Assembly: GCF_058153355.1 (NCBI RefSeq)
Contig: NZ_CM177019.1
Length of the DNA stretch: 64,000 bases
Reading direction: 5' to 3' (one strand)
Made by a program: the position numbers and the translations under genes. Shown here piece by piece: positions 16,405 to 45,492 of the stretch. The stretch's first letter is position 1. The number at the start of each line of letters is the position of its first letter. The notes beneath the pieces were generated by a model. The model was not told the DNA's origin. It saw only the letters and a list, made by a program, of their open reading frames with translations, and ran no database searches.

Positions 16405-16878
16405 TTATTGCCGCCACGGCATGACAGGAACCGCGCTAATCGCGTTTTTCGGCGAACCTTCTACGACTTTGTCGGAGTAAGCCAGATAAGCGAGCGCGTT
16501 GCGTTTGGCGTCATAAAAGCGCACGACCTGTAACGACTTAAAGACCAACGACGTGCGTTTTTTGAATACTACCTCGCCCTGAGCTTTGCCGTTTTTAATG
16601 CGATCTGACAGTTCAATCGGCCCGACTTGCTGACAAGAAATAGCCGCATCGGAAGTATCTTCCGCCAGGCCCAATCCCCCTTTAATACCGCCGGTTTTCG
16701 CCCGGCTCACATAACAGGTGACATTTTTCACATCGGGATCGTCAAAGGCTTCCACAACAATTTTGTGATCAGGACCGATCATTTTAAATACGGTGTCGAC
16801 CGAACCAATCTCTTCTGCATGAGCCAATGGCCCCAGCATTATCAGGCTTAAAGACAGGATCAAATGCTTGTATTTCAT
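16405..16878 (-). CDS. creA: Periplasmic protein CreA
   Basis: 157-aa ORF with signal peptide; synteny. Confidence 0.85.
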
Positions 16879-17088
16879 ATTGTTACCATTTTTATCTATT
16901 ACACGAGCAATTAGTTCGTCACGGTAAATAACATATTGATTAAGAACAAAATCTCAATACTTTTATTTCCGTCAAGCCCTAAAACATACGCTACTAAGAA
17001 AAAAACACTGAATGCTAAAACAGCAAAAAATGCTATTATCCAATTACCTGATGTCAGGTGCTCGTTGTTGAAAGGATGAGGATATTTT

Positions 17089-17958
17089 ATGGATCAGGCC
17101 GGCATTATTCGCGACCTTTTAATCTGGCTGGAAGGTCATCTGGATCAGCCCCTGTCGCTCGACAATGTAGCGGCGAAAGCAGGTTATTCCAAGTGGCACT
17201 TACAGAGAATGTTTAAAGATGTCACTGGTCATGCTATTGGCGCGTATATTCGTGCTCGTCGTTTGTCGAAATCGGCGGTCGCACTACGCCTGACTGCGCG
17301 TCCGATTCTGGATATCGCGCTGCAATACCGCTTCGACTCTCAACAGACATTTACTCGCGCATTCAAGAAGCAGTTTGCCCAAACTCCTGCTCTTTACCGC
17401 CGTTCTCCTGAATGGAGCGCCTTTGGTATTCGCCCGCCGCTGCGTCTGGGTGAATTCACCATGCCAGAGCACAAATTTGTCACCCTGGAAGATACGCCGC
17501 TGATTGGTGTTACCCAGAGTTACTCCTGTTCGCTGGAACAAATCTCTGATTTCCGCCATGAAATGCGTTATCAGTTCTGGCACGATTTTCTTGGCAACGC
17601 GCCGACCATTCCGCCTGTGCTCTACGGCCTGAATGAAACGCGTCCGAGCCAGGATAAAGACGACGAGCAAGAGGTGTTCTATACCACCGCATTAGCCCAG
17701 GATCAGGCAGATGGCTATGTATTGACCGGGCATCCTGTGATGCTGCAAGGCGGTGAATATGTGATGTTTACCTATGAAGGTCTGGGAACAGGCGTGCAGG
17801 AGTTTATCCTGACGGTATACGGAACGTGCATGCCAATGCTTAACCTGACGCGCCGTAAAGGTCAGGATATTGAGCGATACTACCCGGCAGAAGATGCCAA
17901 AGCGGGAGATCGCCCAATTAATCTGCGCTGTGAACTGCTGATTCCGATCCGTCGTTAA
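17089..17958 (+). CDS. rob: AraC-family right-origin-binding protein Rob
   Basis: 289-aa ORF MDQAGIIRDLLIWLEGHLDQPLSL... Confidence 0.9.
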   Translation: MDQAGIIRDLLIWLEGHLDQPLSLDNVAAKAGYSKWHLQRMFKDVTGHAIGAYIRARRLSKSAVALRLTARPILDIALQYRFDSQQTFTRAFKKQFAQTPALYRRSPEWSAFGIRPPLRLGEFTMPEHKFVTLEDTPLIGVTQSYSCSLEQISDFRHEMRYQFWHDFLGNAPTIPPVLYGLNETRPSQDKDDEQEVFYTTALAQDQADGYVLTGHPVMLQGGEYVMFTYEGLGTGVQEFILTVYGTCMPMLNLTRRKGQDIERYYPAEDAKAGDRPINLRCELLIPIRR

Positions 17959-39770: not shown

Positions 39771-41357
39771 TTAATGCTCGCGAGTCTGGTGGAACTGAAC
39801 GTCCGGATAACGTTCCTGCGCCAGGCGCAGGTTGACCATGCTGGTAGCGATGTAAGCGAGGTTATCGCCGCCATCAAGCGCCAGTTGGCTTTCGTTCTTA
39901 CGCTTGAACTCTTCGAATTTCTTCGCGTCCGCACATTCTACCCAGCGTGCAGTGGCAACGTTGACTGACTCATACACTGCTTCAACGTTGTATTCGCTCT
40001 TCAGGCGCGCTACCACCACATCAAACTGCAGCACACCAACCGCACCAACGATCAGGTCGTTGTTGGAGATCGGACGGAACACCTGCACCGCGCCCTCTTC
40101 GGAAAGCTGTACCAGCCCTTTGAGCAGCTGTTTTTGCTTCAGCGGATCTTTCAGGCGGATACGACGGAACAGTTCCGGCGCAAAGTTCGGAATACCGGTG
40201 AACTTCATCATCTCCCCCTGGGTAAAGGTGTCGCCGATCTGAATAGTGCCGTGGTTGTGCAGACCAAGGATGTCGCCCGGATACGCTTCCTCAACATGCG
40301 AACGGTCGCCCGCCATAAAGGTCAGCGCGTCGGAGATCACCACATCTTTCGCGGTGCGCACCTGGCGCAGCTTCATGCCTTTTTCATATTTACCGGATAC
40401 CACGCGCATAAACGCCACGCGGTCGCGGTGTTTCGGGTCCATGTTGGCCTGAATTTTAAATACGAAGCCGGTAAATTTATCTTCGCTCGCCTCTACGGTA
40501 CGGGTATCAGTCTGACGCGGCATCGGCGCAGGTGCCCACTCTACCAGGCCATCCAGCATATGATCGACGCCGAAGTTACCCAGCGCAGTACCAAAGAACA
40601 CTGGAGTAATTTCGCCCGCAAGGAACAATTCTTTGTCGAACTCGTTAGACGCGCCTTTCACCAGTTCCAGTTCGTCACGCAGCTGCTGTGCCAGATCTTC
40701 ACCAACCGCAGCATCGAGATCCGGGTTATTCAGCCCTTTAACAATACGGACTTCCTGAATGGTGTGACCTTTACCGCTCTGATAGAGATAGGTTTCGTCT
40801 TTATAAAGGTGGTAAACGCCTTTAAACAGCTTGCCGCAGCCAATCGGCCAGGTGATCGGCGCACAGCCGATTTTCAGCTCGTTCTCAACTTCATCGAGCA
40901 GCTCCATCGGGTCGCGGATATCACGGTCAAGTTTGTTCATAAAGGTGAGGATCGGCGTGTCGCGCAGACGGGTAACTTCCATCAGCTTGCGGGTACGATC
41001 TTCAACACCTTTTGCGGCGTCGATAACCATCAGGCAGCAGTCCACCGCCGTCAGAGTACGATAGGTATCTTCCGAGAAGTCTTCGTGCCCCGGGGTGTCG
41101 AGCAGGTTAACCAGGCAGTCGTGATACGGAAACTGCATCACAGACGTAGTAATGGAGATCCCACGCTGCTTTTCCATCTCCATCCAGTCCGACTTAGCGT
41201 GCTGGTTGGAACCACGGCCTTTTACTGTACCGGCAGTCTGAATGGCCTGTCCGAACAGCAGCACCTTCTCGGTGATGGTCGTTTTACCGGCGTCCGGGTG
41301 AGAAATAATTGCAAAGGTTCTTCTTTTCGCTACCTCTGCGGCCAAAAGGCTTGTCAT
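39771..41357 (-). CDS. prfC: Peptide chain release factor 3 (N-terminal codons differ from the K-12 form as recalled)
   Basis: ORF 39771..41384; start taken at [27 protein letters not shown] (528 aa), GTPase motifs. Confidence 0.9.
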
Positions 41358-41543
41358 AATTGTTGTCTCTTTGATTATGTACAATCATATGTACAAAGAA
41401 AAATTCATGCCGCTGATTGTACATTTTGGAGGTATCAGAGCATAGCAGAACATGATCAGTAGGTGTATTTGTAGCCAAAGAACATTTGTATATGCAGCAA
41501 TCTTTGCTCTATTGACACTGTTTATTCATACAGTTAAAAATAA

Positions 41544-41563
41544 TACTGTATAAAAACGCAGTA
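41544..41563 (+). promoter_or_regulatory. Candidate LexA (SOS) box upstream of dinI-like gene
   Basis: tactgtataaaaacgcagta fits CTG-N10-CAG, 14 bp upstream of the gagagggg RBS and the ATG. Confidence 0.6.
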
Positions 41564-41577
41564 GAGAGGGGTTTTTT

Positions 41578-41826
41578 ATGCGTATTGAGATCTGCATAGC
41601 CAAAGAGAAAATGACTAAAATGCCAAACGGTGCTGTGGATGCGTTAAAGGAAGAATTAACTCGGCGCATCAGTAAGCGTTATGACGATGTAGAAGTGATC
41701 GTAAAAGCCACCAGCAATGATGGGCTTTCTGTTACACGCACCGCAGATAAGGATTCTGCAAAAACATTTGTTCAGGAGACTCTGAAAGATACCTGGGAGT
41801 CTGCTGACGAGTGGTTTGTTCACTAA
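41578..41826 (+). CDS. DinI-family protein (prophage-encoded)
   Basis: 82-aa [52 protein letters not shown]... Confidence 0.85.
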
Positions 41827-41856
41827 TTAACACGTAAAATCTGTAACGGCTGGAAA

Positions 41857-42063
41857 TCATTCAATACTCGCACTATCGAAAGTTCGCCAGCCAACCGCAG
41901 CACGTTCTTGCATACGACGTGTCTGCGGTTTTATATAATCCCAGCCGGTCCAGTTTCCAGACAACCAGCGTGTCACCTGCCGATAATGTCCTGTCAACGC
42001 ATTACGTTGTAGATCGATTTTCTGGTCATTTGTTGATACGCAAACATAGCCAATAAGCATGGT
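41857..42063 (-). pseudogene. Remnant of a Gin/Pin/Hin-family serine DNA invertase (internal deletion and frameshift)
   Basis: First 22 codons MLIGYVCVSTNDQKIDLQRNAL match invertase N-terminus; downstream DNA encodes DTLVVWKLDRLG only in another frame; too little space for an intact invertase of about 190 aa. Confidence 0.6.
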
Positions 42064-42086
42064 AGCTCCCTCTGACAAAAGCAGGA

Positions 42087-43085
42087 ATGATGCCATTTAC
42101 TCGTTATTTCTGCATTTTCATAAACATTGGTTTACAGGAAGCGGTAAATCAGGCTTCTGGCGCATTACAGAAAAACCAGAACGGTGCAGATATTCCAGGA
42201 AAAGATACCTTCACCAAAAATATTGGTGCCTGTCGCGCATATAGCGCATGGGTGGATATTGGTGGCGATAGTCAGGTCTGGACAACTGCGCAATTTATTT
42301 CGTGGCTGGAGAGTCAGGGAGCATTTAACCATCCTTACTGGATGTGCAAAGGCTCATGGGCTTATGCAAATAATAAGGTCATTACAGATACAGGTTGCGG
42401 AAATATTTGTCTTGCAGGTGCTGTGGTGGAAGTTATTGGCACCCGCGGCGCAATGACCATACGCGTTACCACGCCGGGCACGTCCAGCGGCGGCGGAATC
42501 ACTAACGCTCAATTCACTTATATTAATCATGGTGATGCTTACGCTCCTGGCTGGCGACGAGACTACAACACGAAAAACCAGCAGCCTGCATTTGCTTTAG
42601 GGCAAACAGGAAATACCGTCGGAAACGACAAAGCCGTTGGCTGGAACTGGAATAGCGGGGTCTATAACGCAAATATTGGTGGCGCAACAACATTAATCCT
42701 CCACTTCAATATGAATACGGGGAGTTGCCCTGCCGTACAGTTCCGTGTGAATTACAGGAACGGCGGTATTTTTTATCGTTCAGCGCGTGATGGTTATGGA
42801 TTTGAGGCTGGCTGGTCAGAGTTTTACACCACAACACGCAAGCCATCAGCGAGAGATGTTGGCGCATATACGCAGGCAGAATGTAACTCAAGGTTTATTA
42901 CAGGTATTCGCCTTGGTGGTCTGTCATCTGTTCAGACATGGAATGGTCCCGGCTGGTCTGACAGGTCAGGTTATGTTGTTACCGGTTCCGTTAACTCAAA
43001 CAGAGATGAACTAATTGATACAACTCAGGCAAGGCCAGTTCAGTATTGCATTAATGGGACGTGGTATAACGCGGGGAGTATTTAA
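42087..43085 (+). CDS. Alternative tail-fibre C-terminal segment (Sv'-like), expressed only after segment inversion
   Basis: 332-aa ORF opening inside a gix-like site (…IGLQEAVNQ…) and ending …YCINGTWYNAGSI, parallel to the C-terminus of the 44179..45492 tail fibre (…[12 protein letters not shown]). Confidence 0.7.
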   Translation: MMPFTRYFCIFINIGLQEAVNQASGALQKNQNGADIPGKDTFTKNIGACRAYSAWVDIGGDSQVWTTAQFISWLESQGAFNHPYWMCKGSWAYANNKVITDTGCGNICLAGAVVEVIGTRGAMTIRVTTPGTSSGGGITNAQFTYINHGDAYAPGWRRDYNTKNQQPAFALGQTGNTVGNDKAVGWNWNSGVYNANIGGATTLILHFNMNTGSCPAVQFRVNYRNGGIFYRSARDGYGFEAGWSEFYTTTRKPSARDVGAYTQAECNSRFITGIRLGGLSSVQTWNGPGWSDRSGYVVTGSVNSNRDELIDTTQARPVQYCINGTWYNAGSI

Positions 43086-43087
43086 CG

Positions 43088-43621
43088 ATGATGCACTTAA
43101 AAAACATTTCTGCTGGTAATCCTGAAACAAAAGAGCAATACCAGCTAACAAAGCAATTTAACATCAAATGGCTTTATACAGAGGATGGGAAAAACTGGTA
43201 TGAGGAACAAAAGAACTTTCAGCCTGATACGTTGAAAATGGTCTATGACCACAACGGCGTTATTATTTGTATTGAAAAGGATGTTTCAGCAATTAATCCG
43301 GAAGGCGCAAGCGTCGTTGAGGTTCCTGATATTACAGCAAATCGCCGGGCTGATATTTCAGGTAAATGGATGTTCAAAGATGGCGTAGTGATAAAGCGAA
43401 CTTATACCGGGGAAGAGCAGAGGCAACAAGCGGAAAATGAAAAGCAAAGCCTGCTACAGCTCGTCAGGGATAAAACCCAGCTGTGGGACTCACAGCTACG
43501 GCTGGGCATTATTTCCGACGAGAATAAACAAAAATTAACCGAGTGGATGCTCTATGCGCAGAAGGTCGAATCCACAGACACCTCCAGCCTGCCAGTAACG
43601 TTTCCCGAACAACCAGAATGA
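43088..43621 (+). CDS. Tail fibre assembly protein (U'-like)
   Basis: 177-aa ORF MMHLKNISAGNPETKEQYQLTK..., paralogous to 43650..44177. Confidence 0.8.
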   Translation: MMHLKNISAGNPETKEQYQLTKQFNIKWLYTEDGKNWYEEQKNFQPDTLKMVYDHNGVIICIEKDVSAINPEGASVVEVPDITANRRADISGKWMFKDGVVIKRTYTGEEQRQQAENEKQSLLQLVRDKTQLWDSQLRLGIISDENKQKLTEWMLYAQKVESTDTSSLPVTFPEQPE

Positions 43622-43649
43622 GAGAAGGCCCGATATCGGGCCTTAATTT

Positions 43650-44177
43650 TTACTCAGGTTTTTGTGGCCATTCGGGCTTTGCCGTATCCACACGGCTGAT
43701 CAGAACACTGTAGCGTTCCCATGCTTCCAGTCGTGTGCGTTCCTCGTCTGTTGCCATATTCAGCCTGACAGCGCGTTCCAGCGGCTGGATGACTGATTCA
43801 GCTTCGGAAAGTAACTCGGCCTTTTGTGATTCGGCCTGTTGCTGCTGTTCGTCTGCTGTATAAGTCCTCCTGACCACCGCTCCGTCCTTAAACATCCACT
43901 TCCCTGAATCATCGGCACGACGGTTAGCTGTTATATCGGGGATTTCAACGACGCTAAAACCTTCAGGATTAAGCGTGGAGGCATCTTTAGTGACGGCGAC
44001 AATAATATTATTTTCGTCGTAAACAATCTTTATTGTATCCGGCTGAAAGTTCTTCACTTCCTCATACCAGTTTTTTCCGTCCTCAGAGTAAAGCCAGATA
44101 ACTCCGTGTTTCTTTGTTAACTCATACTGTTCTGGTGTTTTAGCATTACCCGCTTTTATGTTCTTTAAGTGCATCAT
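43650..44177 (-). CDS. Tail fibre assembly protein (U-like)
   Basis: ORF 43650..44210; start taken at [22 protein letters not shown], one base after the tail-fibre stop. Confidence 0.8.
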
Positions 44178-44178
44178 A

Positions 44179-45492
44179 TTAAATACTCGCCACATTATAC
44201 CAGGTGCCATTTATATACTTTTGCACTGGCCTGTAATGAACGCCTGCAATATTATCGGCAGAGTTTTTTCCGGTATCCTGTACGTTAATCCCCGTCAGTA
44301 CATAGCCTGACGGGCACTGGAAATTCCATGTTTGCCAGTTATTCACACCATAATATTGCTGTGAGCCAAGCCGGACATCTTTCACATATCTGGAGTCAAA
44401 ATTGCCATAATTGCCGGGAATAACTTGCGCACCACAAAGCCAGTTACCGTTATTATCCATGTACGCCTGACCATCGGTGCCATTGGCTGTCCTTGAGTTA
44501 TTAATCATGTAGATGCCAAATTGCTTATTCCCCAGCCCACCAATTACGAATTTACGGTCGGTATGGTCCTGGCGAAGCAATGCCTGCGCACCATCGTTGG
44601 ATACCGCATTACGGCCCAGAATAACATTCTGGTCACGCATATGAATCCACATGCCGGTACTACTGTTAATTGCAAAACGGTTTGCAAATATATCCCCTGT
44701 AACATCAAGACCATGCCCCATGCTTATCCGGCCAGTTCTGAGATTAAGCGTAAAGGGGCGTAGTGGCCCTATATCACCATTTTCCCCCTCATTCTCTCGT
44801 GTAGGGATGATATGCAGGCATTCTTCAGAACGACGAAAAATGGCACCAAAAGATGAATTAAATATCCTCAGTGCATTGACTGTCGATATTTTCACTTCAC
44901 TGCTGAAAAGGGCTTTCACAAGAACATACAGAGCATCCCATTTAAGATTCATCAGGTCTTTAACCCGGCCGCCAGTGAGGTGGTGTCTCCATTTGAAATA
45001 TTCATTACCGTTATCCGCCGTTTCAAACCACATGTAGGAATCGGTGTCTGCATCCGAATCATTTTTAAATCCAATCTTCGCCCAGTCAGTATTCCGAATC
45101 CAGGCAAGGATTGAGTCGTTTTCAAAAGTAAGTCCACCGGACAAGGTATCGCCATTTTTTTGCACAGCGTTCCTGGCCCGGTTTACCGTTTCCTGTAAAC
45201 CAAGGTTTTCGAGAGCCGTTTTCACCGTGCCATCCAATTTGATATCGCCAAACGGATTCTTGCGGCTTAACAGCAGCGCGCGAAGTGCGGTAATCAACTG
45301 ATCGTGCTGCCCTTTCTCCAGGCTGGCACCGGATGCCTCCACCACGCTGCAGAGTTCTTCCTGCAACATATCAAAGTAGTCATCATCCAGATCGGTGGCA
45401 GGTGTGCCGGTCTGGGGGTTACCACGGGTAAAACCGTTCTTACCCGCGCCGAACTTATCCTTCTGCGCGGTTTTAGTGTCTATGCGATGCAT
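44179..45492 (-). CDS. Phage tail fibre protein (constant N-terminus plus currently expressed variable C-terminus)
   Basis: 437-aa ORF; codons 94-101 (LENLGLQE) are encoded by a gix-like site; C-terminus …[17 protein letters not shown]. Confidence 0.85.

Follow-up and report, generated by a model that had tools for sequence, protein, structure and literature searches.

A probable one-gene moron encoding a DinI-family protein under predicted LexA control, at the attR end of an SfV-like prophage in prfC

Introduction

[quoted passage not shown] In Gifsy-2, replacing the LexA-box region abolished mitomycin C induction, and a tagged DinI accumulated after mitomycin C treatment (PMC3121763). Nalidixate raised the expression of the Gifsy dinI homologues 4.6- to 23-fold (PMC8072944). 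When the dinI genes of Gifsy-1 and Gifsy-3 were removed by non-polar deletion, induction reporters did not change significantly, and the repressors of the Gifsy phages are not cleaved through RecA (PMC3121763); the only dinI deletion tests that we found in the literature are those in Gifsy phages. Further, in an evolved E. coli line whose SOS response was weakened, the prophage dinI-like gene c0943 went down along with sulA, dinI, umuD and recN (PMC2817434), and one comparative study counted a prophage DinI-like gene among acquired genes that are associated with later mutations to quinolone resistance (bioRxiv 10.1101/2023.06.20.545734).

The same cassette has been on record since 2000 in prophage VT1-Sakai, for which the GenBank entry (AP000400.1) shows a promoter and a "LexA protein, putative SOS box" before H0001, "DNA-damage-inducible protein I", and phage records name the gene DinI. 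In this study, a dinI homologue in a 64-kb stretch of DNA (referred to as the window, and always meaning the whole stretch) was analyzed and compared with these systems. A preliminary description, made from the sequence alone, had read the gene as a prophage copy of dinI behind a LexA-type box at the edge of the prophage; this overall reading, a prophage dinI under LexA-type operators, is supported by the results below.

Materials and Methods

LexA-like sites were scored with a heterology index (HI) that uses all 20 positions of the operator and was derived from 26 reference LexA operators of E. coli. Six of these (lexA 1 and 2, recA, umuDC, sulA and dinI) were verified exactly in MG1655. When the index was checked by leaving one operator out at a time, the HI values of 23 operators correlated with those in PMC11228462 (r = 0.86). 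For the conservation analysis, 80 loci of close relatives were collected from viral contigs, and the 48 with full flanks were reduced to 35 distinct cassette sequences, which were aligned with MAFFT. The features of the locus are collected in Table 1.

Table 1. Features of the prophage dinI locus, in positions of the window
Feature	Position	Strand	Basis
Attachment-site core, 14 nt, ATTATTTCTCACCC; prophage-host junction in prfC, begins at codon 18	41296..41309		Comparison with K-12 and cdtI
Phage-supplied replacement of the prfC 5′ end, in place of K-12 MTLSPYLQEVAKRR	41310..41357	-	Alignment with K-12 and cdtI
-35 hexamer TTGACA; also left cassette boundary	41512..41517	+	Promoter scan 10/12; homology start; VT1-Sakai annotation
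LexA operator 1 CACTGTTTATTCATACAGTT, perfect CTGT-N8-ACAG, in promoter spacer	41516..41535		HI 4.5-5.0, best site of the window
-10 element, TAAAAA (17-nt spacer) or AAAAAT (18-nt spacer)	41535..41541	+	Consensus scan; VT1-Sakai annotates the same choice
LexA operator 2 TACTGTATAAAAACGCAGTA, over predicted transcription start	41544..41563		HI 5.24
Shine-Dalgarno sequence GAGAGGGG, 6 nt before ATG	41564..41571	+	Read from sequence
DinI-family coding sequence, 82 aa	41578..41826	+	Pfam, PHROG 189, PDB and BLASTP matches; RecA-contact residues
3′UTR with hairpin 1 (GGCTGG 41848-41853 pairs with CCAGCC 41887-41892)	41827..41892	+	Alignment and fold; shared by close relatives
Terminator-like hairpin (41893-41930), then TTTTAT; right cassette boundary	41893..41936	+	Fold z-score -3.6

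Results

The gene that had been described as a dinI homologue is a plus-strand ORF with its ATG at 41578 and its stop codon at 41824-41826, and its 82-aa product does belong to the DinI family. It scored 70.8 bits against Pfam PF06183 (DinI; cutoff 24.2, E 1.2e-19), with residues 16-80 covering profile positions 1-63 of 63, and it matched the solved DinI (1GHH/7YWA) over the full length (E 7.9e-13, protein residues 1-81 vs. 1-79). The match to PHROG 189, "RecA filament binding protein DinI", was also strong (E 4.4e-31), but covered positions 71-149 only of the 151 in the profile, that is, its C-terminal half. By BLASTP, the protein is 46% identical to K-12 DinI. Against NCBIfam NF007893, the equivalog model of chromosomal DinI, it scored 72.5 bits, under the cutoff of 111, and for this reason the gene carries the PGAP name "DinI-like family protein". 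Judged by these matches, the protein is a phage-carried paralogue and not the host dinI product, and given the sub-cutoff score, its activity may have diverged from that of a true DinI equivalog.

The residues by which K-12 DinI contacts RecA are defined by a cryo-EM complex, and comprise a pocket of L13, L21, W71, W77 and F78 and an acidic patch of E24, E69 and D76 (PMC9926225). The equivalents in the prophage protein are M15, L23, W73, W79 and F80 in the pocket and E26, D71 and E78 in the acidic patch, so that five of the eight contact positions are identical and the other three are conservative replacements. From these retained contact residues, a modulation of RecA by the prophage DinI may reasonably be inferred.

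A CTG-N10-CAG motif just upstream of the ribosome-binding site had been taken for a LexA-type box, and scoring with a LexA position weight matrix had been set beforehand as the test of it. The motif is present as described, within the 20-mer at 41544-41563 that is now operator 2; it is followed directly by GAGAGGGG and, after six T, by the ATG. The bare motif is non-specific and by itself weak evidence, as 36 occurrences were found in the window vs. about 15 expected. In contrast, the full 20-mer is specific: its HI of 5.24 falls within the range of the 26 reference operators (0.7-9.7; host dinI 4.2, recA 5.5), while an exact calculation gave a chance expectation of about 0.003 sites per 64 kb at HI ≤ 5.3, and none was found at this HI in 100 first-order Markov simulations. 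The earlier claim of a LexA-type box thus holds for the whole 20-mer, but not for the common motif on its own, and it had missed a second operator, operator 1, which lies 28 nt upstream of operator 2. Both operators are close to TACTGTATATATATACAGTA, with HI values inside the range of proven operators, and they are the two top LexA-like sites in the 64 kb, the third best having an HI of 8.4.

The two operators lie over a predicted promoter, for which a consensus promoter scan found a perfect -35 and a weak -10, and transcription was predicted to start at about 41547-41549. Operator 1 fills the spacer between the -35 and -10 elements, and operator 2 spans the predicted start site; this geometry would block RNA polymerase. 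The leader that follows from the predicted start is about 30 nt long and holds a strong ribosome-binding site.

Operator 2 of the window is not the allele found in most relatives. It differs at two positions from the common allele TACTGTATACAAACACAGTA (HI 2.84), and one change places GCAG where the common allele has ACAG, a G at this position occurring in 0 of the 26 reference operators. The window's allele, found elsewhere in strain JNU alone among the sequences examined, may accordingly be the weaker LexA binder of the two. From the operator sequences as a whole, we infer that LexA would occupy this promoter and that the prophage dinI would be induced by DNA damage.

The conservation of the operators was then assessed in the 35 distinct relatives. 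The -35 hexamer, both CTG triplets and both CAG triplets were invariant in the alignment, as were the CTG and ACAG of operator 1, and the two-box layout was kept throughout, while the sequences directly upstream of the -35 were unrelated between phage contexts. LexA boxes also precede the DinI genes of 11 more distant phages. In such distant phage DinI genes, of 37-79% identity, the box is strong (HI 1.0-3.1) and lies 13-19 nt before the start codon, and the hosts belong to five genera (E. coli, Klebsiella, Citrobacter, Salmonella and Aeromonas). Yersinia phage YeP2 has the split-tum arrangement, with the box ahead of a small ORF that directly precedes dinI.

These data bear directly on whether the boxes arose by chance or are remnants in decay, in front of a gene that is constitutive or silent. 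The abundance of the bare motif would fit such an origin, as would the weakened allele at operator 2 and the degraded boxes of VT1-Sakai and JLK-2012 (HI 7-10, or lost). However, two sites of HI ≤ 5.3 stand only 28 nt apart where about 0.003 are expected in the whole 64 kb, their critical triplets do not vary among the 35 distinct sequences, and a box is found before DinI genes down to 37% identity. A chance or relic origin is therefore very unlikely, and was rejected on statistics and conservation.

Downstream of dinI, a 3′UTR of about 105 nt in total was delineated, about 66 nt of which are common to cdtI, VT1-Sakai and other close relatives. The stem of its second hairpin is held by compensatory changes (CCGCAGCACG/CGTG.CTGCGG vs. 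CCGCGGTACG/TGTACCGC vs. CCGCAGTA/TACTGCGG), and in the relatives this hairpin is usually followed by a T-run longer than that of the window. The hairpin of the window was not called by a consensus terminator scan, because only 4 T follow it. Beyond the hairpin, the sequences of different phages are unrelated. In phages with different attachment sites, the shared sequence starts exactly at the -35 and stops behind the hairpin and T-run, at about 41936. No plus-strand ORF of at least 30 aa was found from the dinI stop codon to the terminator; further ones occur past the terminator, inside an invertase remnant that is encoded on the other strand. As the unit from 41512 to about 41936 has its own promoter, a probable terminator and homology ends that match them, it is best described as a one-gene cassette, or moron, in which the homology boundaries coincide with the promoter-terminator unit. 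The cassette occurs in phages of different virion types.

The structure of the 3′ end also bears on a switch of the Gifsy/186 type, in which dinI would be only the first gene of an operon under LexA control, the actual payload being a small antirepressor. The dinI-gfoA/gftA-irsA operons of the Gifsy phages and Tum of phage 186 do work in this way (PMC3121763), small ORFs follow the nin-region DinI genes of mEp237, pAEv1818 and ST13-OXA48phi12.4, and the LexA box of YeP2 stands before a small ORF ahead of dinI. At this locus, however, a conserved hairpin with a T-run follows dinI, the sequence beyond it varies between phages, and the interval before the terminator is free of plus-strand ORFs of at least 30 aa. 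In addition, the 82-aa protein matches the C-terminal half of PHROG 189 without a Tum-like N-terminal half, and its gene adjoins the attachment site instead of lying in the nin region. These observations make such a switch highly improbable here. Both the Gifsy-type dinI-antirepressor operon and the Tum-type fusion are largely refuted, the gene partner that would define the one and the fused half that would define the other being absent.

A third possibility is that the product is partly RNA, with the 3′UTR processed to a regulatory sRNA. The precedent is DinR, which is cut from the Klebsiella dinI mRNA and represses ftsZ (PMC10907235), and the 3′UTR of the prophage gene is about 105 nt long, structured (z = -3.6) and common to close relatives. 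However, it shows 0.063 differences per site among relatives vs. 0.106 at the four-fold degenerate sites of the ORF, which is not significant, and the 3′ ends of the distant homologues 1720a-02 and PhiR12_1 are unrelated to that of the window. No Rfam family reached its gathering score in the 3′UTR; the sole match, CssrB, gave 22.9 bits vs. 76 and lies on the opposite strand, over the hairpin. Nor was a complement to the ftsZ ribosome-binding site seen when the 3′UTR was compared by eye with an ftsZ leader. An sRNA function has thus only a slight chance of being correct, and the 3′ end is read here as that of a one-gene cassette.

The claim that the gene lies at the prophage edge was borne out by comparison with K-12 and phage cdtI. 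The 14-nt core (Table 1) is the only stretch common to K-12 prfC (attB), cdtI (attP) and the window; left of it the window follows K-12, and right of it the window follows cdtI, which has the identical core in its attP, next to the integrase. The distance from the core to the start codon of dinI is 269 nt; the gene occupies the integrase-distal end of the prophage (attR), and the cassette has the tail-fibre genes on one side and the attachment site on the other. The phage supplies a new 5′ end to prfC, and the prfC start of strain JNU maps to 41357. The remaining prophage sequence in the window has 97% identity to the SfV head and tail genes, and its virion genes are SfV-like myovirus genes.

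Strain JNU was also the nearest genome, with 99.6% identity over a 521-bp query of the dinI region. Its element is about 36 kb long, with the integrase adjoining yjjG, and its prophage encodes a YmfK-type repressor that carries a Peptidase_S24 self-cleavage domain (E 1.5e-26). As a separate observation, JNU, SfV, cdtI, SKA5 and Stx2c phages encode a 108-aa protein that has a LexA-type DNA-binding domain but lacks a cleavage domain.

Given this position, the LexA sites might act on the divergent prfC, the promoter of which would come from phage sequence, or on recombination at the attachment site. The boxes are indeed 160-200 nt upstream of where the rebuilt prfC starts, and their distance to the core is about 210-270 nt. 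However, the only promoter candidates in the direction of prfC are weak (8/12) and, at 41374-41413, do not overlap the boxes, and the boxes accompany dinI to yehV and to nin-region positions that have no attachment site nearby. It is therefore highly improbable that the boxes serve prfC or recombination, and LexA control of prfC was rejected, its weak promoter candidates lying away from the boxes. The reading of the boxes as operators of the dinI cassette was retained.

With the same 521-bp query, the cassette was matched in 3175 of the 5426 complete E. coli genomes, and a single genome held as many as 8 matches. The host dinI belongs to the core genes: 5425 of the 5426 have it, beside pyrC, and it was not found within the 64-kb window. 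Because the host dinI is a separate core gene elsewhere, the prophage copy adds to dinI dosage, as the preliminary description had proposed.

Discussion

The anatomy of the locus, the strength and conservation of its operators, the boundaries of the cassette, its homology and the conservation of the RecA contacts were all observed directly in the sequences compared. Together they make it quite probable that the locus is a self-contained one-gene moron that places a DinI-family protein under LexA control, at the attR end of an SfV-like prophage integrated in prfC.

A working model of this circuit can be outlined. In the undamaged lysogen, host LexA dimers would sit on both operators and exclude RNA polymerase. 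Upon DNA damage, RecA filaments would form and LexA would cleave itself, by which the cassette would be induced at the same time as the SOS genes of the host. The prophage DinI, a small acidic protein, would then dock in the groove of the RecA filament as the host DinI does, its hydrophobic pocket receiving F203 of RecA and its acidic patch facing K232, R243 and K245. In this way it would add to the host DinI pool, stabilise RecA filaments and compete with UmuD, LexA and CI-type repressors, which also use the groove. Binding to RecA is predicted from the retained contact residues, and any effect on prophage induction is likewise a prediction.

The benefit may go to the host, by repair and restrained mutagenesis, or to the phage, by tuning the cleavage of its own S24 repressor in the same RecA groove. 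In a phage-centred role, DinI would tune, through the groove, the cleavage of the prophage's own RecA-dependent repressor and so set the damage threshold or the timing of induction; it might also damp the induction of co-resident prophages, and host repair would not be its purpose. The repressor of the nearest relative, JNU, being of the YmfK type with a Peptidase_S24 domain, is consistent with such a role, and DinI and lambda CI use the same elements of RecA, F203 of L2 and K232/R243/K245 (PMC9926225). The negative Gifsy deletions come from phages with uncleaved repressors and so are no test of it, and the cassette is carried by varied virion types and matched up to 8 times in one genome. On the other side, the type of the repressor is taken from a relative, as the immunity region lies outside the window. 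A role centred on the phage is thus possible, although it is unlikely on the present evidence.

A more elaborate form of this idea is that the cassette is a portable "RecA-filament buffer". The prophage DinI, kept off by the two operators and released only when LexA is depleted, would compete with the prophage's own S24-type repressor for the RecA groove, set the damage threshold and timing of induction, and couple co-resident prophages in strains with several copies; once the lytic genes are expressed, the 108-aa LexA-domain protein could re-close the operators and also the host SOS boxes. This scheme is speculative and, taken as a whole, doubtful.

If the LexA-DinI circuit of the one-gene cassette is true, more than half of sequenced E. 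coli carry extra, phage-borne copies of a damage-inducible modulator of the RecA filament. After antibiotics such as quinolones, such copies could then change the SOS response, mutagenesis and the induction of prophages, Shiga-toxin phages among them.

The cassette shares features with each of the known systems. DinR, like the transcript predicted here, comes from a LexA-controlled mRNA with a structured 3′ end (PMC10907235); unlike DinR, the 3′UTR of the window is without extra constraint in the comparison with four-fold sites. In the Gifsy phages, dinI heads an antirepressor operon downstream of the replication genes, whereas in the window it stands alone, with its own probable terminator, beside the attachment site. 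Tum of phage 186, and the split tum of PSP3 and Fels-2, are LexA-controlled, as is predicted for the gene of the window, and have a DinI-like part (PMC3121763); however, Tum is a protein of 146 aa in which an antirepressor half is fused to the DinI half, whereas the 82-aa protein of the window is the DinI half only. K-12 DinI (b1061) is of the same family and length, and its gene is likewise monocistronic, with its own terminator and a LexA box shortly before the ribosome-binding site, but it has a single operator, which as read from the sequence overlaps the -10, while the prophage gene has two.

The closest counterparts are the phage genes that carry the same cassette. The DinI proteins of cdtI, 2H10, mEp460, Lys8385Vzw, SKA5 and many Stx1/Stx2 phages are 94-100% identical to that of the window. 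H0001 of VT1-Sakai is a 96%-identical protein. All these genes share with that of the window the promoter layout, the position beside the attachment site, and the 3′UTR with its hairpin. The attachment site of the window is in prfC, as in cdtI, and its virion genes are SfV-like, whereas relatives are integrated at yehV or yecE. An SOS-boxed prophage dinI cassette is thus real, common in E. coli and already known. The additions made here are modest, and consist of the exact boundaries of the cassette and of the second operator, which is unannotated and degraded in VT1-Sakai: in that phage one box, the equivalent of operator 2, is annotated and both are weaker (HI 7.1 and 9.3), whereas in the window both are strong, with operator 2 present as a rare two-base variant.

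Operator 2 and the other LexA-like site of the window

Operator 2 of the dinI cassette was found as a rare allele, TACTGTATAAAAACGCAGTA, for which the E. coli strain JNU was the sole other carrier among ~90 related loci. The form usual in these loci, TACTGTATACAAACACAGTA, had a heterology index (HI; lower values are closer to consensus) of 2.84 vs. 5.24 for the window allele, being much nearer the LexA consensus. Because its operator 2 scores farther from that consensus, the dinI copy in the window may be more leakily expressed than usual, judging from sequence. The site ranking third among the LexA-like sites of the window, CACTGAATGCTAAAACAGCA, had an HI of 8.4, a level at which ~0.1 site is expected per 64 kb; by gene order, the minus- and plus-strand ORFs flanking it look like creA and rob, respectively.

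Sequences surrounding the dinI cassette

In prfC, the prophage takes the place of codons 1-17 and of the native promoter, and therefore release factor 3 expression relies on phage DNA. Only weak promoter candidates, with 8/12 matches, were found in this arm, and the three TGTACA copies that it also carries are possible arm-type sites of the integrase or sites of a host factor. On the strand opposite to the dinI terminator hairpin, a match to CssrB, a chromosome-encoded Shigella sRNA, was sub-threshold in Rfam (22.9 bits vs. a gathering score of 76, E 0.032), and is probably due to chance.

The dinI cassette is immediately followed by what remains of a Pin/Hin-type DNA invertase, namely its N-terminal part. 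From its two opposed gene pairs, the stretch 42087-45492 looks like an invertible tail-fibre segment, and since the invertase is truncated, this segment is probably locked in a single orientation.

Features in and beside the dinI cassette, elsewhere in the window and in the JNU prophage
Feature	Location	Strand	Remark
LexA-like site CACTGAATGCTAAAACAGCA	17006-17025		Intergenic, between ORF 16405-16878 (-) and ORF 17089-17958 (+)
prfC 5' codons and promoter substituted	41296-41420
prfC promoter candidates	41374-41413
TGTACA x3	41379-41384, 41391-41396, 41418-41423		Same arm as prfC promoter candidates
Operator 2 TACTGTATAAAAACGCAGTA	41544-41563
CssrB match	41896-41956	-
Invertase, N-terminal remnant	41983-42066	-	PHROG DNA invertase matches; PGAP 'pinE ... 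incomplete' in JNU
Tail-fibre C-terminal ORF and assembly gene	42087-43621	+
Assembly gene and tail-fibre gene	43650-45492	-	Opposed to 42087-43621 pair
108-aa LexA-domain protein gene	L096 (JNU locus), NZ_CP083263.1 25666-25992	-	Corresponding position projects ~2.9 kb past window end

Phage DinI genes and a LexA-domain protein of the nin region

Four loci (L089, L091, L092 and L093; Klebsiella ST13-OXA48phi12.4, mEp237, Salmonella SP-016 and Aeromonas pAEv1818) carry phage DinI genes of a second class, with 37-50% identity, which lie upstream of ninB within the nin region. Each DinI gene there has one strong LexA box, and in three of the four loci is followed by an annotated 63-82-aa ORF. 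This layout is Gifsy-like, while the dinI cassette of the window differs in standing alone and adjoining the attachment site.

In the nin region of the JNU prophage, the closest relative among prophages, flanked by a methylase and rusA, lies the gene of a 108-aa protein consisting of the LexA DNA-binding domain alone (PF01726, E 2.9e-19), which shares 43% identity with LexA residues 1-86, recognition helix (RS.NAA.EHL) included, and from which the S24 cleavage domain is absent. tblastn with this protein gave matches in 61 phage records, many of which also have the dinI cassette (cdtI, 2H10, mEp460, SKA5, PhiR40/47/63, Lys8385Vzw and Stx2c phages); SfV, SfII and SfIV carry the protein too, and none of the three was among the dinI matches listed. 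It could be an uncleavable LexA look-alike which, if produced in lytic growth, might shut SOS operators again. The sole studied analogue found was gp6 of Bacillus phage GIL01.
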